NCBI GenBank assembly: GCA_963813715.1
Contig: CAWFAK010000007.1
Span: 992,001-1,056,000 of the forward strand
Length of the DNA: 64,000 nt
From: an uncultured Planctomycetaceae bacterium
GTDB lineage: Bacteria; Planctomycetota; Planctomycetia; Planctomycetales; Planctomycetaceae
Direction: 5' to 3'
Positions 13,706 through 32,538 of the stretch are shown one piece after another (position 1 is the first letter of the stretch; every line of letters begins with the position of its first letter). The position numbers were made by a program, and so were the translations under genes. The notes beneath the pieces were generated by a model that was given only the letters and a program-made list of their open reading frames with translations, was not told the DNA's origin and searched no databases.

Positions 13706-14232
13706 GACTCGCTCGCCTCCTTGCGGTGCTCCCGTTTGCCCGAGTTGGCTGATACCTGAATTGAAGTTTCATCGTCTGACGCCGGGGCGGCAGTGCATCC
13801 ATTCAACCTGTGAGACTGGGCTCTCTTACGCTCGCTTTTGGAGCGCCTCGTCTCTCCGCCGTTACACCGACATCTCTCGTTTTTGAGCTCCTTTTCGCGA
13901 GCCAGCTGCCAGAGCCGAGCACTGGCGGCCTGCGACTGGCACAATTCGGCCAGATGGCTCTGCATGGACATGAGCGGTCCCAGGACCGAATCGAGGACAT
14001 TCGACTCAATTTCCGACGGACCGCGGTGATTATGCGCGTCCGTGCTCTGGACCCGTTGCAGCAACGTGTATTGAACGCGCAGGGTCAGATACCCGGCCAC
14101 ATTCAGCATCATCCGAAAGAACTCGGCAGACAACTTGGCCGAATCCTTTCGGGACGCGACGTCGATGGCCCGGAACAGCTGCGAGAAAGCATCGGCGTGT
14201 TTTGTCTCATGCCAGGGCGTCTCGAGGATCAA
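13702..14232 (-). CDS. Helical hypothetical protein, probably 5'-truncated
   Basis: Helical composition; coupled to 13337..13705; no RBS at the TTG. Confidence 0.5.
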   Translation of the reverse strand: MILETPWHETKHADAFSQLFRAIDVASRKDSAKLSAEFFRMMLNVAGYLTLRVQYTLLQRVQSTDAHNHRGPSEIESNVLDSVLGPLMSMQSHLAELCQSQAASARLWQLAREKELKNERCRCNGGETRRSKSERKRAQSHRLNGCTAAPASDDETSIQVSANSGKREHRKEASES

Positions 14233-16543
14233 TCAGTTGCCGGCCTCTCCAAACCGCCTTCGGAACAGGCTTCCGCAGTTTGCGATGTCGAGATCAACCC
14301 TCCCGACGCGCAGCTCTCGGTCGATCCCTCCTTGGCGTCCATTTCCGGAGTTGGATCCCGGCGTCGCGTCGTGGTGCCTCATCCGACGCTCAATACGTCA
14401 ATTACGCTCGTCGCTACTGCCGAGGGCTTTCAGGAACTGCGTCGAGAGGTCAATTTGCGGCCCGGCGGCGCGGAGTCGATCGCGTTGAAACTCGAGTCGA
14501 TTCCCGGATGGTCGAAATCTGTGCTCGATACTGGCAAGCCGCTGCCCGGGAGTGGCACAACGACCCCGCCTGACAGCACCGACAGAACGCAGGCTCAGGG
14601 CGCCATCGAATGGAAACTAGTTTCGACGATTGGGAACAGCGGGTCGGATATCTACGGCCTCGCACTGAATCATGACGGCTCTCGCGTGGCGGCGGGCGGG
14701 GCGGACCGCACGCTGCAAGTTTGGGACGCGCGAACCGGCGCTCTCAAAGCACGAGTCGAGCGACCGAGCGAAGTCGGCAGCGTTGCTTACTTCAAAGACA
14801 GCAAGAGATTGATGTGTAGCGTCGGCCGCGAACGAAGAGTCGAGGTTTGGAAGGAAAGTGCTCTCAGCCTCCAACACCGATCGGTGGCCGCAGGTCGTAG
14901 AGGGTCAAATCGCAATTCATCAACGTCATCGCAGCCATGGATCCAGTTCACAAATGATCCGAATCAAGAATTGTGGCGAGCAGTCTTGAGCCCGGACGAA
15001 AGACTCGTGGCCACTGGTGGAAACTCAGGAATTGTCACGATCTGGGAGGTCGCTACTGCCAAACCTCTTCGCCAGGTTCTGCAAGGTCTCGGCGAGAATG
15101 CGAGTCGCGAGCAGCCGGCGCCTCGGCCGACTGCCGGTAGTCGGTTCAGACGTCGCCCATCAGGTCGGTCGTCCCGACCACAGCCCCTTAGTTCGGCTAA
15201 ACCAGGTGCAGCCATTCTCAGCCTAGCATTCAGCCCTGATGGGAAGCAGCTGGCCTGCGGCGGTGAGTCCGGGGTGATTACTCTGTGTAACGTCGTCACC
15301 GGCGAAGCGCAAGCGAAGCTGGAGGGCCACTCTTCATCGATCTTACAGTTGGCTTACAGCCGCGATGGGCAGCATCTGGCCTCTTTAGGCAGTGATCGGA
15401 CCTTACGCCTTTGGGACACTAAGCAACAAAAGGAATCGCAAACCTTCGACACAGGGGTGGGTGAGGCGATGGCCGTCAGTCCTGCCGGTAGGTGGATCGC
15501 AGTAGCCGGAGACGACAATTCGGTTCGCATTTGGGACATCGAGAACCCAAAGGACTTTTCAGTGTTGGGGCACGGCGTGAATGTCACTCACCTCGTCTTC
15601 AGCGCCCAGGGTACGCGGATCGCAACTGCGGACCGCGATCGAACAATCAGGGTTTGGGACCTCCACTTCGCAAAGCCGCCCCAGCCCGACTCAACTTCAG
15701 GGACACTGGCGGCGACTACGGCCATCCCAACGCCCAAACAATCTGTCGGTGCTGTCGACAGTGGCGGGCCTTTCGCAGGCAAGCAAGCCGGCCAGCGTCT
15801 CGATAACGGGTTAGGCATGGGTTTCGTGTGGATCCCGCCTGGCGAATTCAAAATGGGAAGCGCAATTGGCCCCGATCACCAGAAAAACGAGCCCCAGGTC
15901 AATGTCAAACTGTCCGGCGGGTTTTGGCTGGGAAAATGCGAGTTAACACGAGCCCAATGGCAGCTGGTGATGAAGACGACTCCGTGGAAAGAATTGACGG
16001 ACGATCTCAATCCAGTCAGCGGCGACAACTATCCCGTGACGCATGTTACTTGGCAAAACGCGATCGATTTCTGTAGGAAATTGACAGAGGACGAGCATAG
16101 AGCTGGACGGCTCCCGCCTGGTTGGGAATTTGACCTTCCGACGGAAGCTCAATGGGAGTATGCGTGCCGGGCCGGAACGACGACGCCCTACTATTGCGGT
16201 AATACGTTTGACAAGCTGAAGGATTCGGCTTGGTTCAAGGGAAACATCCAAAACGAGTTTGATCGCCACGCTCAGCTGGTAGGGTCGAGGGAACCCAATC
16301 AGTGGGGCCTCTACGACATGCACGGAAATGTCTCCGAATGGTGCCGTGACTGGTATGCGCCAGATCCTGCGCGGTGGTTTAGATCCCGAGGTGTCGTCTG
16401 GAAGCGGTCGAAGGGTCATACGCGGCGGCAATTGGCGGTCCACTGCCGAGAATGTTAGATCGGCCTATCGGATTGGTGCCAATCTCGAGACGCGGAACTC
16501 CGCTGTAGGCTTCCGCGTGGCCGCAGTCCCCGTACGCAAGTAG
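14230..16543 (+). pseudogene. 5'-truncated protein with PEGA-like region, WD40 repeats and FGE-sulfatase (SUMF1/EgtB-like) domain; frameshift ~16370
   Basis: WD repeats; IPPGEFKMGS, LPTEAQWEYACRAG, PNQWGLYDMHGNVSEWC, VIRGGNW, GFRVA. ORF sequence before ~14230 is the antisense of another gene. Confidence 0.8.
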
Positions 16544-20980: not shown

Positions 20981-23900
20981 TTATCGAGATCCGCCGCGCC
21001 TTTCGCCTGCGGCGGCGTTCCACTCGGCTTCGATTTCGTCCGGCTTGAGGGTCACGACGACGCCGCTCTCATCAATGCGTTGACCGCTCGTGGCCTTTGC
21101 GAGATGGATCAGTCGCTCACTCGGCGTGCCGTCGTCGAGCGTCCACAAACGAATCACGGCATCTGCGCTGACGGTGACAAGCTGATTTCCCTCGTCGCAG
21201 AAGCCCACAAAGATCACGCGATCGGTATGCTCAAGCAGCGGCGACACTGGCTCACCGGTCGTTGCATCCCACACACGGGCCGTCGTGTCGTTGCTTCCTG
21301 TCGCGAACAAGCTGCCGTCCCCCCGGATGGTGCAACACGTCGCGTCGGCTCGTTGCAGTGGCAGCGTCGCCAGCGGCTCCCCTGTCGGAATGTCCCAGGT
21401 GCCCGCTACGCCGCCTGCCGCGATCGCCGCAAGACGTGTTCCGTCGGCGCTGAATGCAACGCTCGAAGGATTGTTAAGGTTGGCTTGCGCGATGAACTTA
21501 CCGGTGGCCGCGTCGCAGACGATGGCTTGGGTTGACGGCCGAATCGCGAGTAGAAACCGACCATCAGGCGTCAGCCGACAATCGTTGAACTCGCCTTCGG
21601 TGTCGGTGGCGTGAAATTCCGAGAGCAGGTGGCCGGAAACTGCATCCCACAGACAGATTCGAAGACCGCCAGCCGTGTAGATTTTTTGGCCATCGGTGCT
21701 GAACATCGCTCGCTTCAGGCCCTCTCCGTGCCGCAACAGCAAGCGGCCCCGGCCGCCTTGAATCGAAACGACTTGCGCCGTGCCGTCGGAGTTCGCCGCG
21801 ACGAGCGTTGTTTCATCTGGAGAAAGGCTGACGTCGTTCGGCCGCCCGGTTCCGCATTTCACTTCCATTCGTCTGGGTTGCTTCGAGATGTCCCATACGT
21901 CCAGATTGGCATTGTCTCCCGCCAACACCAACGTCATGCCGTCGCGCGCGAATTTCGCGTGACGCGTGCCGGATGAGCCGGTCAGAGCGACCGAACTCAA
22001 ATTCGGCGCATTGAGGTCGCAAAGCTGCGCCGTTCCCTGAGCGCCCGCGAGCAAGAGCCAATGTCCATTTGGGCTGAGTTGCACAATCGATAAAGCGCCC
22101 AGGTCCGCGCAGCGATGCTCGACCTTGGAGGATCCGCCCAGGTTCCACTGGCGGAGAAAGCCGTCGAACCCGGCGGTCAAGACATGGTGCTCGTCATCGG
22201 TCAGCTCCGCCCAGGTGATTCCGTTGGCACAGTCAAACGGCGCTGCAAGCAAAGTCCCGGTCGTCAGATTCCAGACGCGCACGGTCTTGTCGAGGCTCCC
22301 GGTCACAAGCGTCTTCCCGTCTTTCGAGAACGACAGCGTCGAAACGCGTTGCTCATGATGGAGGTCACCCGGCAGGGCGCGCTGGGTTTGCAGATTCCAA
22401 ACGTGCACGCCGCCATCTCGGCAGCCAGCGGCTAACCGTGTGCCGTCACGACTGAATGCGATATGGAGGACGGAGCTGCTAGTGCGGAACTCGAATTTCT
22501 GGGCGCCGGACTTTACGTCCCACGCTCGGACAGCGCCGTCATTGCCGGCCGAATAAAGCAAGTCGCTCTTCGGCGCGAATCCGACACAATTGACCGGTTT
22601 TCCACTTTCGTGCTTTAGTGCCGCGACCTCGGTCGCGGTGACGACCGCCCAGACGTGTGTCGCGCCGTCGTGACAAGCAGTCGCAAGAAGCGAACCATCT
22701 GCGCTGAACGCCAGGTTCTGGACGTCGGATGAATGAGGAAGGATTGGCCCGCGCGGTCTTCCCGTGGAGACGTCCCAGAGCCGTACAGCGCCACCGTGCG
22801 TTGCCGATGCGAGGAGCCGGCTCGTCGGATCGAAGCACATCGCCAGAGGCGCCTTGTTGCTGTCAAGGATGAGCGGATTGCTCGCGAGCGAGGACGTCGG
22901 CCATACGCGGATGACCGCATCATTGCAGAACGTCGCAAGCAGATTTCCGTCGGGGCTGAATGCGCATTGCCAGAGGCCATCGGGATGTTGTAGGACGACT
23001 GGGGAACCAGCAGGGCTGGCGAAATCAAGCACCGTCGCCGCCTTGGAGGCAGTCGTGATCGCGAGCAGAGATCGGTTTGGACAACGCGCAACGGAATTAA
23101 TAGCTCTGCCCAGGAACCAAGTATGGGCCAGGCGCGATGTGTCCATCGCTGTGATCAATCGAACACGGTGGACGGACCTGGAACGCTCACTGGCCGGAAC
23201 TTGATTCAGTGCCGCAGCAAACCAGGGAAGCGCGTGCCTCGGATCGCCCCCTTCCAGGGAAGTGATTCCCTTTGAGACAAAAAGTCTTTCCCGGCTCTCG
23301 CGGTCAGCCTCTTCTGCTCGCCGCGCAGTTTCTGCTTGCTCGGCAAGCCGCTGGTTGGCATTTTCGACTCGACTCGTATAGACGGCGTGCGCAACCGGGA
23401 AGCTGAGCCCCAACGCCACGGCGACGGCAACCAAAATGGCTGTCTTTGGACGTCGTCGGGCCCAGCGACATCCTCGTGCAACCAGTGAGATCGGTCGTGC
23501 TTGGACTGGTAGTCCTTCCAGGAATCGCGTCAGGTCTTCCTCGAGCTCGCGCCGACGCGTAGCGGTCCCGAGGCAGCTTATGCATGCACATAAGGCAGAT
23601 TCTTGCCAGGTCCATCGGCACAACGCGATTCTCCACGCTTGGCGAACGTGGTTCTGCATGGATCACCTGATGCAGGACGCTTTGCACGTTGCCCCGAAAT
23701 GGTCGCTCACCTGTCAACAGCTCGTAGAGGACTACTCCCAGGCTGTAAACGTCGCTCCGCGCATCGACGCTTTTGCCCTCCGCTTGTTCGGGGCTCATGT
23801 AGGCCGGGGTCCCCAGAATCGTCCCGGCGACGGTGATCAACGCCTCCCCCTCGCGCCGGGCCAGGCCGAAATCCATCAAAAACGGCTCGCCGCGTTCGTC

Positions 23901-24820
23901 GAGCATAATGTTCGCCGGCTTGACGTCACGGTGAATCACACCGCGCTCATGCGCGTATTGCAGAGCATCGGCCAGGATACGCACAATTCTTGCAGCCTCC
24001 CGCGGCTCGAATTGGCGGGCAGCCAGGGTCTTGCTCAGCGTCTGACCGCGAACAAATTCCGACACGATGAAGGGCTGCTCGCGCGTCCCTCCGACTTCGT
24101 ACACCGAGACGATGTGCCCATGATGCAAGGCCGCCGCGCTTTGCGCCTCGCGAATGAATCGCTCCTGCTCCCTCTCGGATCCGAGGACGCCTTCTCGGGG
24201 CACTTTGATCGCGACGACTCGCCCAAGACCGGTGTCAATCGCGCGAAAAACAGTGCCGAAGCCCCCCTGCCCGACGGCATCGACCAATCGGAAGCGGCCC
24301 AACGTGCCGGCCGGGATGCGAGCCTCGCTCGGTGCGTCGCGACCGGAGACGGTCGCACCGGAAAAGCCCTTATCCGAAACGCCCGGCGCTGTCGAACGCG
24401 TGGCGCCGATGACAGACAAATCGGCGCCACTGGCGGCTGTTTCCAGCGCTGCCCTGCTCGAGCGCTCGCCCACGTCGCGAGGTTCAGAACCGCTCACCAA
24501 CTCAGCCGCGGCGTTGCTTACCGCCGACATGGGGCCGACCCGCCAGGCGCCTCGATGCGCAACAGCTGGAGGATGACCTGCTCGAATACTTGGAGCTCGG
24601 GAAAGTCGCGCAGGTAATCTTCAGTGCGCTGGGGATGACCGTCTCTCAGGCGGAAATCAAGGTCGATGACGACAAGCGCCTGTAACAAAGCACTGCGCCG
24701 ATGACCCGCTTGCTCGCAATAGTCGTCGATAGCCGGACACTCGCCGCGCCGCCAAGCGTCTTCGAATCGCTTGACAGCCTGGTCGATGTCAACCGCGGAG
24801 ATGGGTGCTTCGGATGACAT
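20981..24820 (-). CDS. Ser/Thr kinase with TM segment and WD40 repeats (frameshifts ~24550, ~23550)
   Basis: N-terminal IDQAVKRFEDAWRRG...YLRDFPEL domain; [35 protein letters not shown]40 array. Confidence 0.9.
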
Positions 24821-25200
24821 GCACAGTCTTCGCAAACGACGATTCGGATCAAAGGACGCGCCTCGGAGCCCGCTGCGCCTTCCGTTCACTCCAACCGTCG
24901 GAATGTCCGTCGGCTCAATAATACCGAGGCGGCTCTTGATCCTGTTCTGAATCTGGGAAAGCGGGACGGCAATCAAAGCATAAACAAATACCCATTTATG
25001 CCAAATTGGGCAGTTTCCCTGGTTGTTTTAGCTGCCTGCCTCCTTGTACACTATCGGAAACCCAAGAGCCGTTCTCGAATCCGTGTGGTATCGCACGTGC
25101 AAAGATAGGGAGCCCGGTGCTCAAAAACCGGAACCCAGCGCCTACGCTGAGCTTGATTTCCAGACTTGTGTTCCCTTCCGCCATCTGTGAGGCTCCAGCC

Positions 25201-25410: not shown

Positions 25411-25573
25411 CAGGGGAAGCCCATCCGCGCGTCGTGCGCCGTACAGTCGCGGGGCTGTTAACAAGGAATCAGCAGCAACGGTTGATCAAGCGGTTTTCGC
25501 CGCATAGCGCGCTTCGCCCGGGACGGCAGCGCAAACCTCGCATGGCTGCCCTAGGCTCCTGGCGTGTCGAATC

Positions 25574-27645
25574 GTGGCCTTTCTGGTTTCTCAAAAACGC
25601 GGCGATCGCCTCGGGACGTCCCAAACCGGGCAACTGGCCGTCGAGCACATTCCTGGATTAACGAAGCTGTGGGCCGCGACCAGCGGCGCCCCCGAAATTC
25701 ATGTCGCGATCTTGGATGCGCCGGTCGATCGGGCCAATCCCTGCCTGGCAGCCGCGAGGATCGATCAAGCCTGGTTGGGAGAGCAGACGCACTGCTCTTC
25801 GCACGGAACCGAAGTCGCCAGCGTGATCTTCGGGCAGCACGACTCGGCCGTGCGGGGAATCGCGCCGGGCTGTCGCGGAATCAGCATTCCCATTTACAAG
25901 TGCGATCCCGTTCGCTCTCCCGCGACGAATCAAGTGCAACTGGCTCGCGCGATTCATGAAGCCCTGGCGGCCGGCGGCGCACGTCATCAACGTGAGCGCC
26001 GGACAGTTGGTTCCCTCTGGCATCGCGGAGCCCGAGTTAGCGGCAGCCGTCCGCGCCTGTGCTTCGGCCGGAGTTCTGATCATCGCCGCCGTCGGAAACG
26101 ACGGTTGCGACTGCCTGCATGTGCCGGCCGCACTCCCCTGTGTTCTGGCCGTCGGCGCCATGCGATGGGACGGCAGCCCGGTGCCGGGCAGCAACTGGGG
26201 ATCCATTTACCAAACGCAGGGAATTTTGGCCCCAGGTGAGAACATCGACGTCTGCGGTGCGAACGGACAGCCGATGTCGCGGACGGGATCGAGCTACGCG
26301 ACGGCCATCGTCGCCGGCGTGGCGGCCTTGCTGCTCAGCCGAGAACTCAAACTGGGGCGTTCTCTCCGACCACTTCTTGTTCGCAAGGCCCTGCTAAGCG
26401 CAGCCGACCGATTGGCTCGTGCATCCGCCGACGAAAGGCACCGTTTTCTCGCTGGTCGTTTAGATATTACGGCAACAACGATCTTCCTCGACACCTGGAG
26501 CAACACCATGTCCGATAGCATGAATCTCGACCTGCCCGGTGAAGGCATCTCCGACGGAGGCGCCCCGTGCGACGCCGTGCCCGTCAGTATCCAGCCCTCC
26601 GCCGAGCGAAACGTCGATCCTCCGCGGCTGACGCAGCCTGGCATCTTGCCGACGCAACCGGAACGCCAGGAACGACGCACGAACGCCGTCGAGCCCTCGG
26701 CATGCTCCAGCTGCCGCGGCGAACGTCAGTTGGTCTATGCCCTGGGACGATTGAACTACGACTTCGGCAGCGAGGCCGGCTTGGACGCATTTAAGCAGCG
26801 GATGCGCCATCTGCGACTTCCCGGATGCGATGATCCCAAAATCTTCTGGGAAAATGCGAACCCACTCGATGAACGGCAGTTGAAGATTTTCCTCGGCGCC
26901 ATTCCCGAACAGGAAGCAGATGCGTGGATCTCGGCCCTGCTTTGGACCTTGGAGGTCGGCGGATTGCCGCTCTACGTCATTCGGCCGGAAGGCCCACAAG
27001 CGTCGGTGGCCTACAGGAGCCTCAAGGATTATTACTTTGAGCAATTCCCAACGCACACGAAGCACGAAGAGGCGGAAAACAAGGGGGAACACCAGCACCA
27101 TCAGCAGGACCAACACCAGCAGCAAGCCCCACAAGAGTGCGCAATCGCCGAACAAGTTGGCGTTCCAGGTATCATCGCGGGCCAAGCAACGCTGCATAAC
27201 GGTCTGCGCGTGCCGGCGATCAACCCAGACCTACGGGCCCTCTGCAATTGGAATCGGCATTGTTTGGTCACACAAGTTTTGGGGGACGCACCGGATGCCG
27301 CGCTCAAAGAGTCGCTGGAGGAGTTCCTGGACCACCTCTACTTCGAGTTGCAGAATGCCGGCCTCACCTCGCGAGACCGATCCCTGAATTACGCGGCGAC
27401 CAACCTCGCCGAACCCAAGAAGATTTTCGTCAAAGAGCTCAAGAACAAACACTCACTGGATTCGATCGGCGCCGAGCGCAGCAAACTCTGTCGTCCCGGC
27501 TCCGATTGTTGGGACGTCACGCTGTCGTTCTTCGACCCGAAGAATCCGCTGCACACCGTGCGACTCGGTGCACCGTTACACCATCGATGTCAGCGAGGTG
27601 CTTCCCGTCACAGTCGGCGAGATCCGTTCCTGGAAGACTCGGTAA
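25574..27645 (+). CDS. PatA/PatG-family cyanobactin-type S8 protease with PatG_D/PatG_C-like C-terminal domains (frameshifts ~25975, ~27565)
   Basis: IPGLTKLWA, AILDAPVD (Asp), HGTEVAS (His), GNDGCDCLHVPAA, TGSSYAT (Ser); LVYALGRLNYDFGSEA; RDRSLNYAATN; CRPGSDCWDVTLSFFDP; TIDVSEVLPVTVGEIRSW. Confidence 0.9.
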
Positions 27646-27672
27646 CGAAACTTGCAAACTGACGGCTGAGGT

Positions 27673-27693
27673 TGGGGCGTAGGCGACGCCCCA
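27673..27693. terminator. Hairpin between convergent protease and radical SAM genes
   Basis: TGGGGCGT/ACGCCCCA 8-bp stem; no clear U tract. Confidence 0.35.
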
Positions 27694-27726
27694 TTGGCCG
27701 GTTTGGTCAGCGCGGCCGGCAACGGC

Positions 27727-28857
27727 CTACGGGAAGAGCTGCGCATACCGCTCGAGGCGATCCGAGCTCGCCAGGCGGCGGAAGATTTCGGGGAAAAGTG
27801 CCAGAGAAATCTGGCACTCCACCTCATCAATTCGCTCTAAGCCCGATCGGGCGAGACACGTGCCTCCGCAGAAGCTGCGCCAATCGCAGTTCTGGCAGGG
27901 ACTGAGACTGGCCGTCGAGCGGCCGCGGATCGTGTCGGCGATCGGGCTGTCGAGGGCGGCCGCGATTCCGTCGCGCTCCATGTGGCCCAACGAGAGGGTG
28001 CGGTCGCCGATGCAGTCGCACGACTCGATCGTCCCGTCGACGCTGATCGAAACGAGGTCCCGGGCCGCGCCGCAGCCATCGCGCAGACACATGCTCCGCC
28101 GATCGCCCGAGAGGACGTTGCGCAGATAGCGCAAAACCGGCGCGACGGTCATCTGGTCGAACTCGCCGGCCTCCACCGCGTCGAAGAGCTCGAAATACGA
28201 TTGGATGACGACGTCGGTGTCGGGAGCAAAATGGGGCATCTGTGTCGCGCGGCCGAGCGGCTGGAAGAGCGTTGCGTCCCAGTGCTTGATGCCGAGGTCG
28301 CGCATGTAGCGGGCCGTCTCGAGCAGTCGGGCGGCGTTCGTGGACGTGACCGTCGTCAGCACGGCGACTTTGGCCAACAGGCGAGGGTTCGAGCGCAGAG
28401 CTTTTTCGATCTCGTCGAACCGTCCCCGTCCCGAGTGATCGACGCGGTGCCGATCGTTGAGGGCGGCCGGTCCGTCGAGGGAAACGCCGATCGAGACCCG
28501 GTTCTCGAGCAGGAAGTCGACGGTTGCCGGCGAGAAATGGCGGCCGTTGGTCTGCACCGAGAAGCGGACCTCGCGTTCTGCCGCGCGGGCGGCTTCGCAC
28601 GCGAAGGGAACGAGCGCGCGGATCTGATCGATGGCCAGAAGCGGTTCGCCGCCATGAAACAAGATTTTGAGGACGGGGCCGGAGCGGGCCAGCGAATCGA
28701 CGATCGCCTTTCGGGCGACCTCGTCCGACAGGCGACGTGAATAGTTCTCGGCCCGAAAGTCGTAGCAATAGTCGCAGGCCAGATCGCAGAAACCGACGAG
28801 CTTGAGGATCAGCGTGTTGAGCGAGCCCGATCCCGCGTTCAATGAACCCGGACGCAC
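27727..28857 (-). CDS. Radical SAM/SPASM-domain protein, probable peptide maturase
   Basis: CDLACDYC, FHGGEPLL, QTNG, GVSLDGP...DRHR; SPASM cysteines MCLRDGCGAAR...ESCDC...CQNCDWRSFCGGTC...EC. Confidence 0.92.
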   Translation of the reverse strand: MRPGSLNAGSGSLNTLILKLVGFCDLACDYCYDFRAENYSRRLSDEVARKAIVDSLARSGPVLKILFHGGEPLLAIDQIRALVPFACEAARAAEREVRFSVQTNGRHFSPATVDFLLENRVSIGVSLDGPAALNDRHRVDHSGRGRFDEIEKALRSNPRLLAKVAVLTTVTSTNAARLLETARYMRDLGIKHWDATLFQPLGRATQMPHFAPDTDVVIQSYFELFDAVEAGEFDQMTVAPVLRYLRNVLSGDRRSMCLRDGCGAARDLVSISVDGTIESCDCIGDRTLSLGHMERDGIAAALDSPIADTIRGRSTASLSPCQNCDWRSFCGGTCLARSGLERIDEVECQISLALFPEIFRRLASSDRLERYAQLFP

Positions 28858-28878
28858 ACCTCCCTGGCAGCCGGCTCC

Positions 28879-29178
28879 CTATTGGTCCCGAATCAATCCC
28901 GAGTTTCGCAGGGGATCGAAGAGCGGCGATCGCTCGAGCGCAGGGTCCTCGAAGCCGCTCGACTCGCAGGCGTCGAGAAATTCTTGGACCGCGCCCACTG
29001 ACTGGACCCTGACCATCACCCAGCTGCCGCTGGGCGGGTGGAGCAAGAGGGCAAGCTCGTCGCTCAGGCGGCGCTCGCGAATCGGGCGCAGAACGCGATA
29101 TCGCGGCGGGGCACCCAGCACGGGAAGCGGCGACAACGAGGGCATCGCAATCGTCCCCAGTCCTGACTCAGTGCTCAT
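28879..29178 (-). CDS. Putative RRE/PqqD-like protein (may be the N-terminal domain of the radical SAM enzyme)
   Basis: 99 aa; three strand-like segments, then helices ending LRNSGLI. ATG overlaps the upstream stop (ATGA). In frame with the rSAM gene across one TAG. Confidence 0.6.
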   Translation of the reverse strand: MSTESGLGTIAMPSLSPLPVLGAPPRYRVLRPIRERRLSDELALLLHPPSGSWVMVRVQSVGAVQEFLDACESSGFEDPALERSPLFDPLRNSGLIRDQ

Positions 29179-29450
29179 TCCTGGTCGACGTTCTTCATCC
29201 AAATCGACATGAAAGAGAGCCCTTGCGGAACCGCGCTGGCTTTCACAATGGCGATTTCCTTGACGTCAAACTTAGACGTCGCGGCAGAAGTTAACCGGCC
29301 GATTCCGTGGAGCACATCGCGACTCACATCGTCGGCGATCGCGTCCGGGACGATGATCGTGACATTGTCGTCTGTGCTCGGACTCACGGTGTCGAGCGAT
29401 GTCTTCTTGTCTTTTTTCCCCTTTTTGCCCTTCTTTTTCTTTTTCGACAT
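29175..29450 (-). CDS. Lys-rich small protein P1 (91 aa), putative RiPP precursor
   Basis: GAAAGGG RBS; MSKKKKKGKKGKKDKK...VTIIVPDAI...FDVKEI...GLSFMSIWMKNVDQE. Translationally coupled to the RRE-like gene. Confidence 0.75.
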   Translation of the reverse strand: MSKKKKKGKKGKKDKKTSLDTVSPSTDDNVTIIVPDAIADDVSRDVLHGIGRLTSAATSKFDVKEIAIVKASAVPQGLSFMSIWMKNVDQE

Positions 29451-29460
29451 GCGAGGCCCT

Positions 29461-29527
29461 TTCCCGGTTGTGGAGCCTGGTCGTTGAACCTGGTTGCGGA
29501 CTCTGGTTGTCGGACCTCCGTTGTCGT
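29461..29527 (-). repeat. Five degenerate 12-14 nt tandem repeats (consensus ~CCGACAACCAGRGT)
   Basis: Minus strand: ACGACAACGGAGGT CCGACAACCAGAGT CCGCAACCAGGT TCAACGACCAGGCT CCACAACCGGGAA. Confidence 0.6.
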
Positions 29528-29563
29528 GTTCTCTCCATTAAACGCGAGTTGCCTGCCCCGATG

Positions 29564-31862
29564 CTAAGGGGATTTTGCGGCGGATGCCAGCATTGTTTTG
29601 GCCTCATTGTCGAGGCCGGTCAGCTGGCCCGGGGTGAGATGCTCCTTTTGTTTCCAGGCTTCGGCCTTCCGATAGAACTCTTCGGCCCGCGGTTTGTCGC
29701 CGAGCTTCCACCAGGCCATGGCCGCGTAGTACCAATCGAAGCCGTCGCCGCCATCCCGCAGGATCATCGACTCGTCGAGCGAAGCGACGGCCGACCGAAA
29801 ATCGCCCGCCCGGTATTGGGCGACACCCAACGTGTTCCAGTAATTGGCATTTCGCGGCGACATGTCGACCGCCTTGTGCGCGAGGGCGATCGCTTTTTCC
29901 GGATTCCGGATCTTCGGATCGCGATTGTTCGCGAAGACCCAGGCCATCCAGGCGTGCGGATCGGGGTTGGTCGGATCGACCTCGGCGGCGCGCTGGAGCC
30001 ATTCCAGCTCGTGTGGAACGTCGGACCTGAGTTCGTACTTCGTGCCGCACTCGGTGCAATAAAGCGAGAGTTCGCGCTTGTATTGAGAGTTTTCGGGATG
30101 CCGCTCGACGAGGCGTTTGCTGATTTCGATCGACTTGCCGATCGAGCGGAGCGAGGCTTCGATGTCGCTGAGGCGCGGACTCGGCGCCGGACACGTAGTA
30201 GTGAAGGCCGGCAAGATCGTGCGAAAAACCGGCGACGTCGGGATATTGGTCAGCCAAATCCTGCCAGACGTCGCGACTACGCTGCAGAAGCTCCACTCCG
30301 TCGCTGCGGATTCGACGGGCCGCTCGATTTGCGGTTCACATAGTGCGGAAAGCGAAACAGCCCTCCCCTCAGAGGTTCGAGGTCCGCCAGGCCGGCCCCT
30401 TGTTGCCGCAATTTCTCCAGACCGGCGAGGCCCTGTTCCATCTCGGTCTGGGCCTCGTCGGGCTCGCCGTTGACGAGATGTAACTGCCAAAGACGAAAGT
30501 GCGTGGCCGCGACCTCGGCCGCCAGAGCCGGACTCTCGGCGTTTTGAGCGAGAAACTTCTGATAATAGTCCATCGCCGTCGAGACCAGCTCGCGGCGTAG
30601 CGGCTGCACTCCCGGCTCGTCGAGCAAGGGATTGTCGCTGATCGCGGCGAAGTCATCGACCGCGTGTCGGGCCGCCTGCAGGTTAGTCTCGGCATCGACG
30701 CGAGCGTCGCGCTCGCGATCGCGGGCAGCGGCGATCGTCAACGCATCGTACGTCATCACAATGGCAAGCGAGATCGGAACGAACAGAGCCAGGCCGATCG
30801 CCGCAGCCTGCCATGGCTTCCGCTGACACCAGCGCCAAATCCGCTTGGGCCGGCTGGTCCTGCGAGCATAGATCGGTTCCAACCGCAGCCAGCGGTGCAA
30901 ATCATCGGCGAATTCCTGCGCCGTCTGGTAACGGCGAGAGCGTCCTTGTCGATCGCCTTGAGGCAGATCGTCTCCAGGTCGGCCGGGATATAGTTGTTGA
31001 AACTGCGGGGGTTGCGGGGCTCTTCGTTCATCACCCGCTGGATCAGCATCTGGATGTTGCCCCCGAACGGCCGCTCCCCCGTCAACAGCTCAAAGAGCAC
31101 GATGCCCAAGCTGTAGATGTCGCTGCGGCGATCGAGTTCGTGCGAGTTGCCGGCCGCCTGCTCGGGGCTCATGTAGGCCGGCGTTCCGAGAATCTGCCCC
31201 TCCATCGTCAGCGTGACATCGCACTCGGGCCGCAGCGCCAGTCCAAAATCCAGAATTCGCGGCCGGGCGTTCTGGTCAATGATGATGTTCGACGGCTTGA
31301 TGTCGCGATGGACGACGTTGCGCTGGTGGGCGTACTCGAGTCCCTCGGCAACCGCCGCCACAAGCAGCGCCGACTCGCGAAGGGCAAAACGCCGCTGGTT
31401 CATCAGCTTGTCGAGCGATGACCCCAGGACCAGTTCGCTCACAATGCAGGTGCGACCGTCGACCTTGCAAAGATCGAAGATCGGCACGATGGCCGGATGG
31501 TGCAGCTGGGAGGCGCTGCGTGCTTCGCGGGTGAATCGTTGGAATTCGGTCGCGGTCTCCGGGAGCTCTCGTCGCGGCACTTTGAGGGCCACCATCCGGT
31601 CGAGATCCGGGTCGTAGGCCGCGAATACGGTGCCGAAGCCGCCTCGCCCGATCCGATTGATAACCCGAAATCGCCCGACGTTTTTCAGCTCGTCACCAGG
31701 CGACGCGGGCCCTGCGAACTCGGCTGGAACCGGGCCGGTTGGGGCGGTCACATCCTGCTGGAATGCGATGGTCAGGTCGCACTTGGGACAGCGGCTGACC
31801 TGGCCGAATCCCTCCGACGGGATCTCCAGGGGGCTCAAGCACCTGGGGCAGAGCGCTTGCAT
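29564..31862 (-). CDS. Ser/Thr kinase with N-terminal Zn ribbon, TM segment and C-terminal TPRs (frameshifts ~30940, ~30290, ~30190)
   Basis: CPRC...[53 protein letters not shown]. Confidence 0.88.
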
Positions 31863-32313
31863 CAATCTCTCCAGCGGTGAATGGTCGCGCCGACCAAAAG
31901 GCGACGTTCACAATCAGGAGCGAGCGAGATGGTTTTTGCTGCCAGCGGAATGCGTTCGCGTGGCCGTCGAATGCCGCTCTGAGGATTGACGTGCCGGGAG
32001 AGGCGCCCGGGCGGCAAACGAGGATCACTTCAAAGGAAGCACCTTGTGCGGCGCGCCGCCGCAACAGCAGGAGTCAGCATAGCCAGATTGCGGTCGCCCA
32101 TTCCAGTCCCGTCAGCCGACAGGGGCGAATGCGCAGGATTCAGGCCGAAGGACTCGCCTCGCTTCACGTCTTTTTTCGCAAATCGGCGCTCGATCTTGTT
32201 CTCACGGCGCGATAGAACGAAACACGACACCAATGGATCTGACGAGTGGAGGAAAGGAGCATTTCACCCCGAGAATTATTTCACGACCTTCAACTGCAGT
32301 GAAAGGCCCAGCG

Positions 32314-32538
32314 ATGGCAAAGAGAAAGGCGGCATCGAAAAAGGCGGCGGCACCAAAGAACCCAAAAGCGGTCACGGCCCTGCCCCAGGACGTGGTCTTA
32401 GTCTACGTTCCCGACGCGATCTACAATCTCGGCGGCAACATGCAGCAGATGATCGGCGCGATGAACTCTCTCTGGGCCAAATCGTTCGGCGTAAAGCACG
32501 TGTGGGTGGATAACAACAGTACCTGGCCCAACCTGTAG
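32314..32538 (+). CDS. Lys-rich, Trp-rich small protein P2 (74 aa), paralog of P1
   Basis: GAAAGG RBS; MAKRKAASKK...DVVLVYVPDAI...IGAMNSLWAKSFGVKHVWVDNNSTWPNL. Confidence 0.75.
   Translation: MAKRKAASKKAAAPKNPKAVTALPQDVVLVYVPDAIYNLGGNMQQMIGAMNSLWAKSFGVKHVWVDNNSTWPNL

Follow-up and report, generated by a model that had tools for sequence, protein, structure and literature searches.

What might a radical S-adenosylmethionine (rSAM) maturase do to a small, Lys-rich protein that contains no cysteine? The question is raised by a two-gene operon of an uncultured Planctomycetaceae bacterium, found in a stretch of 64,000 nucleotides (the window; assembly GCA_963813715.1, contig CAWFAK010000007.1, positions 992,001 to 1,056,000 of the forward strand). 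In it P1, a precursor-like small protein of 91 aa (29175..29450, minus strand), is followed by a maturase gene (27727..29178, minus strand). An initial annotation of the locus had described a cluster for a peptide made by the ribosome and altered after translation (a RiPP), composed of a precursor, a RiPP recognition element (RRE) protein and a maturase of the triceptide/darobactin type. The analysis reported here supports the pairing of a precursor with an rSAM/SPASM maturase and changes the rest of that description. On balance, we favour a reading in which P1 is the substrate of the adjacent maturase, an enzyme of ~480 aa that would install a cross-link between Trp and Lys (-2 Da) in W84-M85-K86; the TAG codon that interrupts the maturase gene in this assembly is probably not its normal state. 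The binding of P1, the site of modification and the bond formed are what we infer from the conservation, gene order and predicted structures described below.

Conservation of the W-x-K/R motif and its co-occurrence with the enzyme

We refer to the window enzyme and its uncurated relatives as clade X. Sixteen clade-X loci were taken from species-representative genomes (related loci are labelled L0xx, L17x and L180; L004 and L175 are the same locus, and L174 comes from G402, a genome of the same genus as that of the window). Their hosts are Planctomycetaceae, Deinococcaceae, Sphingomonas, Kitasatospora, Blastocatellia, Bryobacteraceae, Micromonospora, Chitinophagaceae, Streptomyces, Phyllobacteriaceae, Angelobacter, Mycobacterium, Herbaspirillum and one archaeon. 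A small open reading frame (ORF) lies directly upstream of the enzyme at 13 of the 16 loci. When these 13 ORFs were aligned with P1 and three P1 homologues, Trp84 was the sole column besides Met1 that was invariant in all 17 sequences, and position +2 was always Lys (10 sequences) or Arg (7). The profile of this alignment retrieved 51 proteins among 1.84 billion representatives. With a 1934-aa protein and the already known P0002 set aside, W-x-[KR] stands at the aligned column in 48 of the 49 matches examined, and the remaining one stops before the column. Many of the clade-X precursors read W-T/S-K/R.

In the window, the codons of W84-M85-K86, the proposed modification site, are at 29193..29201 (minus strand). 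The initial annotation had proposed two core motifs in the tail of P1, FMS and WMK. The WMK motif has held up: in the planctomycete subfamily (14 sequences) M1, K3, K5, P35, L47, W84 and K86 are invariant, and W-x-K/R is kept clade-wide. FMS was rejected as a second core motif, since F80 is present in the closest relatives only and F80 and S82 are not conserved within the subfamily.

The co-occurrence of P1 with this rSAM clade, which had been proposed as a check, was found at two levels. When the same 401 genomes of the phylum were searched for P1 and for the enzyme, the window's genome was the only one to yield either. Within its genus, a P1-family match was obtained in 7 of 11 further genomes, and ten P1-type genes were examined (those of the window, L005, L174, L176, L177, L178, L179 and L180, and two of L175). 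Six genes with a W-x-K tail are all from loci that contain a clade-X enzyme (L174, WMK; L175, WPK and WHK; L176, WQK; L177, WDK; L180, WDK), whereas the P1-type tails of L178 and L179 lack Trp, and no clade-X enzyme was found within the 16 kb retrieved around them. Thus, in this small sample from a single genus, conservation of the motif tracks the presence of the enzyme, in the direction predicted. A second metagenome scan, made with the enzyme alignment, yielded one close locus (L084), the rest being other rSAM families.

The operon and the precursor P1

Our results show that the operon is real and consists of two genes rather than three. P1 and the maturase are translationally coupled, the TGA stop of the former and the ATG start of the latter overlapping as ATGA (29178..29175), as first noted. 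The three-ORF unit of the initial annotation stands only in this tight coupling of P1 with the gene downstream; its other two members, an ORF of 99 aa and the rSAM ORF, are a single interrupted frame. The 99 codons (28882..29178, minus strand) are followed by a TAG (28879..28881), and the same frame continues into a 376-aa ORF with a GTG at 28857 (27727..28857, minus strand) that encodes the radical-SAM core (CDLACDYC) and the SPASM domain. In a genome search the match spanned maturase residues 1-484 with one TAG inside. Among the 105 listed homologues of the 376-aa ORF (E <= 6e-44), 93 are 426-561 aa long and so contain the N-terminal part, the remaining 12 being of 207-386 aa. The nearest of these homologues, P0006 (485 aa, 98% identical), begins exactly as the 99-aa ORF does and has RDQLTGAGC in place of the window's RDQ(stop)GAGC. 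The N-terminal part was also fused to the enzyme in all related loci retrieved; at four loci of the same genus (L175, L176, L177 and L180) the enzyme is one continuous match, and a search of 5.8 billion clusters (proteins of 54-174 aa) returned no stand-alone relative of the 99-aa piece. This ORF is therefore the N-terminal domain of the maturase and not a discrete RRE protein, as had been supposed, and it should not be called as a gene of its own in annotation.

The description of P1 itself was confirmed in ORF 29450..29175: 91 aa, a poly-Lys N-terminus (MSKKKKKGKKGKKDKK), a tail that reads GLSFMSIWMKNVDQE and not a single Cys. Three parts can be told apart in the protein: residues 1-20 are a disordered Lys-rich head, residues 29-71 a strand-helix-helix-strand "leader" and residues 72-91 a flexible tail; AlphaFold2 (AF2) predicts a strand at 29-35, helices at 36-41 and 44-57 and a strand at 65-71, with a predicted local distance difference test score (pLDDT) of only 68. 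Five close homologues of P1 were found among the 5.8 billion clusters. The leader family had been noted as an unrecognised one, and indeed neither P1 nor 13 related precursors gave any match in Pfam or NCBIfam. Compared with its counterpart in G402, P1 differs in six codons; five of the differences are synonymous and one is nonsynonymous, which places P1 under purifying selection.

Other searches were less informative. A locus search with the P1 alignment across genome and metagenome contigs gave no match because the pattern chosen was the poly-Lys stretch, the ESM Atlas held no usable match for the long-type precursor, and a scan for sigma-70 promoters and terminators gave nothing beyond chance. 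Contigs of four public runs (X1 and X2, soil metagenomes; X11 and X12, RNA libraries) were compared with the window over positions 25500-31900. The X11 and X12 contigs cover P1 and the maturase, but also almost all of these 6.4 kb, and we do not take this coverage as evidence of expression because DNA can occur in such libraries.

Architecture and phylogeny of the maturase

The maturase is a member of an uncurated clade whose architecture is an RRE-like domain, an rSAM core and a full SPASM set. The CxxxCxxC plus SPASM enzyme reported earlier was recovered by Pfam on the 376-aa ORF (Radical_SAM, 1.4e-14; SPASM, 3.5e-5). The CxxxCxxC motif reads CDLACDYC in the window, and its residues C133, C137 and C140 are invariant in 33/33 homologues; Radical_SAM was detected in all 33 members and the Pfam SPASM model in 28. 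The SPASM region of the window enzyme is C-x4-C-x12-G-x4-C-D-C ... CQNCDWRSFCGGTC ... EC, and across the 33 homologues the pattern C-x4-C, G-x4-C-x-C, C-x2-C-x5-C-x3-C and a last C is formed by columns that are invariant or nearly so.

An AF2 model of P0006, built with the 33 homologues (pLDDT 89), predicts a folded unit at residues 27-98, followed by the rSAM barrel and then by the SPASM domain. Its N-terminal unit comprises strands at 27-29, 34-37, 42-47 and 52-57 and helices at 58-74, 79-83 and 87-92. CteB (5wgg) was the top match both in a profile search of the PDB (hmmsearch 7e-45, profile positions 31-445 against CteB residues 16-438) and in Foldseek (6e-23 over 478 columns), with an alignment that takes in the N-terminal domain; anSME, ChlB, TigE and SuiB are further solved relatives behind it. 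We regard the N-terminal domain as RRE-like on the basis of its predicted fold and of this alignment.

No NCBIfam model reaches its cut-off on the window enzyme. The scores, given as score/cut-off, are PapB 152/340, QhpD 125/453, anSME (TIGR03942) 124/349, DynA 120/450, YhhB 106/445, FxsB 105/370, SCIFF 99/425, GrrM 71/310 and XyeB 62/450, and four relatives give the same picture. Of the darobactin and dynobactin models tested (NF038005 and NF041298), DarE is outside the 25 best families of the window enzyme and scores 62-69/650 in two relatives.

In a careful tree (53 rows, LG+G4), in which outgroups were labelled by NCBIfam and several "-like" labels denote scores below the family cut-off, the 24 rows of clade X form one side of a branch with a support of 99/95 that is present in 99% of bootstrap trees. 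QhpD, PapB, nif11-like and SCIFF-like rows stand on the same side of the tree as clade X, as they also do in a quick tree of 63 rows. The anSME rows, which form a clade of their own (100/99), and the FxsB/YhhB/XyeB-like rows are across a 100/98 split from clade X, the XyeB-like row clustering with FxsB/YhhB. In approximately unbiased (AU) tests, with groups named after the tree was seen, a joint clade of clade X with anSME was rejected at p = 2e-74, and one with the FxsB/YhhB/XyeB-like rows at p = 0.004. The enzyme thus does not group with the sulfatase maturases, a placement by which the initial annotation would have been refuted. Nor can its assignment to the triceptide/darobactin type be maintained, given scores far below the cut-offs and the rejection of the joint clade.

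By sequence, fold and architecture, and by its side of the tree, clade X is closest to the thioether maturases CteB/SCIFF, PapB and QhpD, which have an RRE-rSAM-SPASM arrangement and link the sulfur of a Cys. From these it differs in that the window enzyme scores far below the cut-offs of PapB, QhpD and SCIFF and that P1 has no Cys. The Foldseek matches to SuiB, the solved enzyme of the streptide type (ranks 17-22, E ~1e-15; template modelling score 0.52, root-mean-square deviation 12.7), are much weaker than that to CteB.

Proposed chemistry of the W-x-K/R site

How could such an enzyme act on P1? In the mechanism that we propose, P1 would dock on the RRE-like domain by its structured middle part (the strands 29-35 and 65-71 with two helices between them) and thereby bring its flexible tail into the active site. 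The 5'-deoxyadenosyl radical would take a hydrogen from the side chain of Lys86, the resulting carbon radical would add to the indole of Trp84, and re-aromatisation via the auxiliary clusters would leave a three-residue Trp-Lys carbon-carbon cross-link with a loss of 2 Da.

Links of this kind have precedents in other systems, although clade X belongs to none of these enzyme families. In the WprABC system (PMC11851443), WprB joins Trp-C5 to Arg-C-gamma in WPR motifs, and the family also has single WxR/K precursors; the W-x-R/K motif is common to both systems, and a carbon-carbon link from Trp to a basic side chain is the chemistry proposed here. By the same published description, however, WprB has no Aux I cysteines (it is twitch-like), needs a separate small protein, WprC, and occurs in enterobacteria, firmicutes and archaea; it is thereby set apart from clade X, in which all SPASM cysteines are present and the N-terminal domain is fused to the enzyme. 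In darobactin a Lys-Trp carbon-carbon link is described (PMC9055067), and type A xenorceptides carry a C-terminal W-T/S-K/R-S-F, as darobactin does (bioRxiv 10.1101/2024.12.16.628070). The three-residue W-x-K/R motif is common to clade X and to the DarE/XyeB systems, and the W-T/S-K/R of many clade-X precursors resembles that of both peptides. Apart from the poor fit of the window enzyme to these two families, P1 differs in its length, in its structure and in that its leader lacks a Gly-Gly end. Triceptides, defined by aromatic-X-X rings made by rSAM/SPASM enzymes (the 3-CyFE synthases FxsB, YhhB, GrrM/OscB and XyeB; PMC11499958), share an aromatic-X-X precursor motif with clade X, but the window enzyme scores below all their cut-offs. 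In streptide, StrB links Lys-C-beta to Trp-C7 (PMC11851443), but its KxxxW motif has the reverse order and another spacing.

Several observations weigh against our reading. By sequence the enzyme sits with thioether-forming maturases and not with the known cyclophane synthases; the Pfam model PqqD was detected in 0/33 members; a precursor was recognised in neither L014, L017 nor L018, three of the 16 loci; and in many distant precursors a Cys stands right behind the motif (WTRACC, WSRGC, WAKTTC). To these must be added that the window's own copy of the maturase contains a stop, that the X11 contig spans the TAG site without a Leu-Thr insertion seen in other contigs (the letters themselves not being visible), and that the bases differing between contigs are not clearly in homopolymers.

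We keep other chemistries open because clade X is closest to the thioether formers, above all where a Cys follows the motif (WTRACC, WSRGC); such members may make thioethers, W-x-K/R being only a recognition element. A possible, if not a likely, alternative is that the pairing of P1 with the maturase is right and the reaction is a different one: an ether or C-N link, a hydroxylation or an epimerisation of the Trp or the Lys or, in relatives whose tails carry Cys, a thioether, with W-x-K/R serving mainly for recognition or for later cleavage. The tree neighbours and nearest curated families (PapB, QhpD, SCIFF-like) and the Cys-bearing tails are consistent with it, and the K/R could signal a trypsin-like cleavage site. 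Against it, Cys is absent altogether from the P1 family (6/6) and from the precursors of L006, L007 and L010, so that thioether formation is not the chemistry of the whole clade; W and the K/R at +2 are the sole universally kept residues; and several unrelated rSAM enzymes cross-link exactly such motifs (PMC11851443; PMC9055067).

The kinase-TPR gene and the P1-like paralogues

Is P1 a peptide precursor at all, or rather the partner of a kinase? Directly upstream of P1 there is a Ser/Thr kinase-TPR gene on the same strand (29564..31865, minus strand; Pkinase and TPR matches), which in the window is in three ORF pieces. In L004 it is one ORF of 766 aa, and it generally encodes ~760 aa with the TPR repeats at the C-terminus. 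All ten P1-type genes lie directly downstream of a same-strand kinase-TPR gene, and the pair is present twice in L175. This linkage could be functional, with a peptide and its receptor kinase, or only an inherited gene order within one genus.

Beyond the kinase gene, and head-to-head with it, the window has a P1-like paralogue (32314..32538, plus strand; BLASTP against P1, E = 5e-5; profile, 4.6e-31) with a Lys-rich head and a leader-like domain and no C-terminal W-x-K tail. It contains an internal LWAKSF and ends in TWPNL. Counterparts were found at the same relative place in L174 (12312-12533) and in L004 (4479-4766, minus strand), the latter copy having LWAVPF.

We hold it unlikely that the P1-type proteins are primarily partners (ligand, substrate or regulator) of the adjacent receptor-like kinase-TPR, the rSAM step then being an optional tailoring of a signalling protein and the product not a secreted natural product. 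Besides the linkage in 10/10 genes, this idea accounts for the coreless P1-like genes that lie beside kinases without any rSAM gene in L178 and L179, and for the coreless paralogues that the window, L174 and L175 each have head-to-head with a kinase gene. However, all these loci are from one genus, in which shared ancestry or tandem duplication can account for the linkage, and no kinase was seen beside the clade-X loci of other phyla, part of whose ORFs were scanned.

The in-frame TAG and the other frame breaks

In the window the TAG stands where the linker begins that joins the RRE-like domain to the rSAM core and is predicted to be disordered (residues 103-119, pLDDT < 50 in the AF2 model of P0006). 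At this site the X1 contig (~99% identical) and the X2 contig have three extra G within 28879-28881, which gives CTCACG, that is Leu-Thr, matching P0006. In G402 the enzyme (L174) is broken elsewhere, at residue 313/314, and the window's TAG site reads REQGAAC there, with no stop.

Further differences were found in the neighbourhood. The X2, X11 and X12 contigs have one base fewer at 25976 and at 27563, and in varying combinations the four runs show one-base differences at 29556, 30169/30175, 30294 and 30942. Several of these differences coincide with breaks of the protease and kinase ORFs, 25976 being inside the overlap 25956-26239 and 30294 inside the overlap 30277-30490, and such single-base differences near ORF breaks suggest an error-prone assembly. 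The genomes of the window and G402 have the same genes broken, at different places. Because X1 and X2 read through and because the breaks of the two genomes do not fall at the same places, we consider that the breaks, the TAG included, are most likely assembly errors; the TAG is probably either such an error or a strain-specific lesion in the disordered linker, and not the normal state of the gene, a natural split of the enzyme in that linker being less likely.

It is improbable, in our view, that the cluster is decaying in this strain, with a real TAG, protease and kinase genes whose frames are truly broken, and no product made. One stop and several one-base differences inside 6.4 kb, in contexts that are not clearly homopolymeric, would agree with decay, as would the X11 contig. 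Yet P1 is intact and almost unchanged with respect to G402, and the X1 and X2 contigs read through the TAG site, while X2, X11 and X12 differ by one base at the window's frame breaks. In addition, G402 breaks the same genes elsewhere and reads through the TAG site, which fits random assembly errors in genomes of few contigs and incomplete recovery (18 contigs and 82.6% completeness for the window genome, 20 contigs and 87% for G402).

The cluster as first described, with three genes, a discrete RRE, a triceptide/darobactin-type enzyme and two cyclophanes on FMS and WMK, is very improbable and already largely refuted: the 99-aa ORF does end in TAG as assembled, the stop sits in a linker where a split could be tolerated, and discrete partner proteins such as WprC are known elsewhere (PMC11851443), but the 99-aa piece has no stand-alone homologue and is fused in 93 of 105 homologues and continuous in L175, L176, L177 and L180, a GGAGG precedes the GTG restart by no more than 1 nt, F80 and S82 are unconserved, and the enzyme is outside the triceptide-type clade.

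As a separate observation, a kinase-WD40 gene of the window (20981-24976) also appears split into overlapping ORFs.

Acyltransferase and protease genes near the operon

What other genes accompany clade X? An LpxL-like acyltransferase (PF03279, weak to moderate matches, E 1e-5 to 1e-9) is directly after the enzyme in 10 of the 13 loci that are neither planctomycete nor archaeal (L006, L007, L008, L009, L011, L012, L013, L015, L018 and L019), with tblastn matches between loci down to 6e-48. Within the window's genus it follows the enzyme in L177 (8784-9920) and L180 (5348-6403), and in L178 (8177-9316) and L179 (6524-7336) it comes directly after the coreless P1-like gene, with no rSAM gene. In the genus loci with the acyltransferase the peptide tails end in Cys (WDKLC, WDKAC, MIVSC, MLASC), and the combination of Cys-ended tails with an acyltransferase hints at lipidated peptides. 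The L180 query did not find the acyltransferase in the window's genome, and at 82.6% completeness its absence does not follow from this.

Convergent to the maturase, the window encodes an S8 protease of the PatA/PatG family, split over two frames (25574..27662, plus strand). TIGR03895 gave 401 bits on the larger piece of 568 aa (cut-off 421) and 48.7 bits on the N-terminal piece, scored as split pieces, and the Pfam domains Peptidase_S8, PatG_D and PatG_C are all present. These domains recall the cyanobactin clusters, but the locus has neither a cyanobactin-type precursor nor a heterocyclase. Outside the window, the protease goes with the cluster only in the X2 contig and in L174. It was rejected as a conserved partner, being absent from L004/L175, L005, L084, L176, L177 and L180; it may remove the leader in this lineage, and it is not a core part of the system.

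The residues that follow W-x-K (NVDQE, NVDME, NVGQE, SVADE; in the window, the P1 C-terminus at 29175-29189) are found in the closest relatives only, and a PatG-like protease is present in both of the loci seen (window and G402). These five-residue endings loosely resemble what we take to be the C-terminal recognition signal of PatG, AYDGE.

Novelty, significance and distribution

We rate the system as a new precursor family together with a new maturase clade within rSAM/SPASM peptide modification. No curated model of Pfam or NCBIfam covers clade X or its precursors. The motif strings WTRACC, WAQWTR and TVWRR gave no match, and the clade no mention, in the papers searched; the sequence-similarity networks that supplement the triceptide and Wpr papers may include it among their uncharacterised groups. 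For rSAM-SPASM RiPPs of planctomycetes the literature search returned only a general review, and for an acyltransferase or LpxL together with rSAM precursors nothing relevant. The clade itself is spread over planctomycetes, acidobacteria, actinomycetes, alphaproteobacteria, betaproteobacteria, Bacteroidota and Deinococcota.

A wider picture may be drawn from these data, one which we think possible but rather doubtful. The W-x-K/R peptides, be they ribosomal peptides or small proteins, would form a new class that crosses phyla, in which an rSAM clade of their own installs a Trp-Lys/Arg ring and an LpxL-like acyltransferase often tailors the product, perhaps through lipidation close to a C-terminal Cys. 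In this genus, where the peptide genes would be firmly tied to those of membrane Ser/Thr kinases with TPR domains, the modified peptide would be a ligand or modulator of the neighbouring kinase, a circuit of peptide signal and receptor kinase not known to have been described in bacteria. The recurrent linkage to the acyltransferase and the kinase suggests a biology beyond that of a simple antibiotic.

Peptides cross-linked by rSAM enzymes include the BamA-targeting darobactins, and to our knowledge each new enzyme clade has so far brought a new ring chemistry. A peptide of 91 aa and one enzyme make a compact, testable system with a sharply defined candidate site, W84-M85-K86, and a promising route to a new class of modified peptides. 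We consider it an above-average lead because the site is so defined and the enzyme is outside the known cyclophane synthases. Being nearer to the thioether formers, the clade could reveal how one cross-link chemistry gives way to another among SPASM enzymes.

The organism and the locus seem to be widespread in soils, and near-identical sequence over 25500-31900 (about half or more of the sampled words) was found in soil and rhizosphere metagenomes of many separate studies (runs X1-X20), RNA libraries among them. Elsewhere in the window, an 882-aa ORF (13810-16458, plus strand), unrelated to the cluster, has WD40 repeats together with an FGE-sulfatase (formylglycine-generating enzyme-like) domain at its C-terminus.

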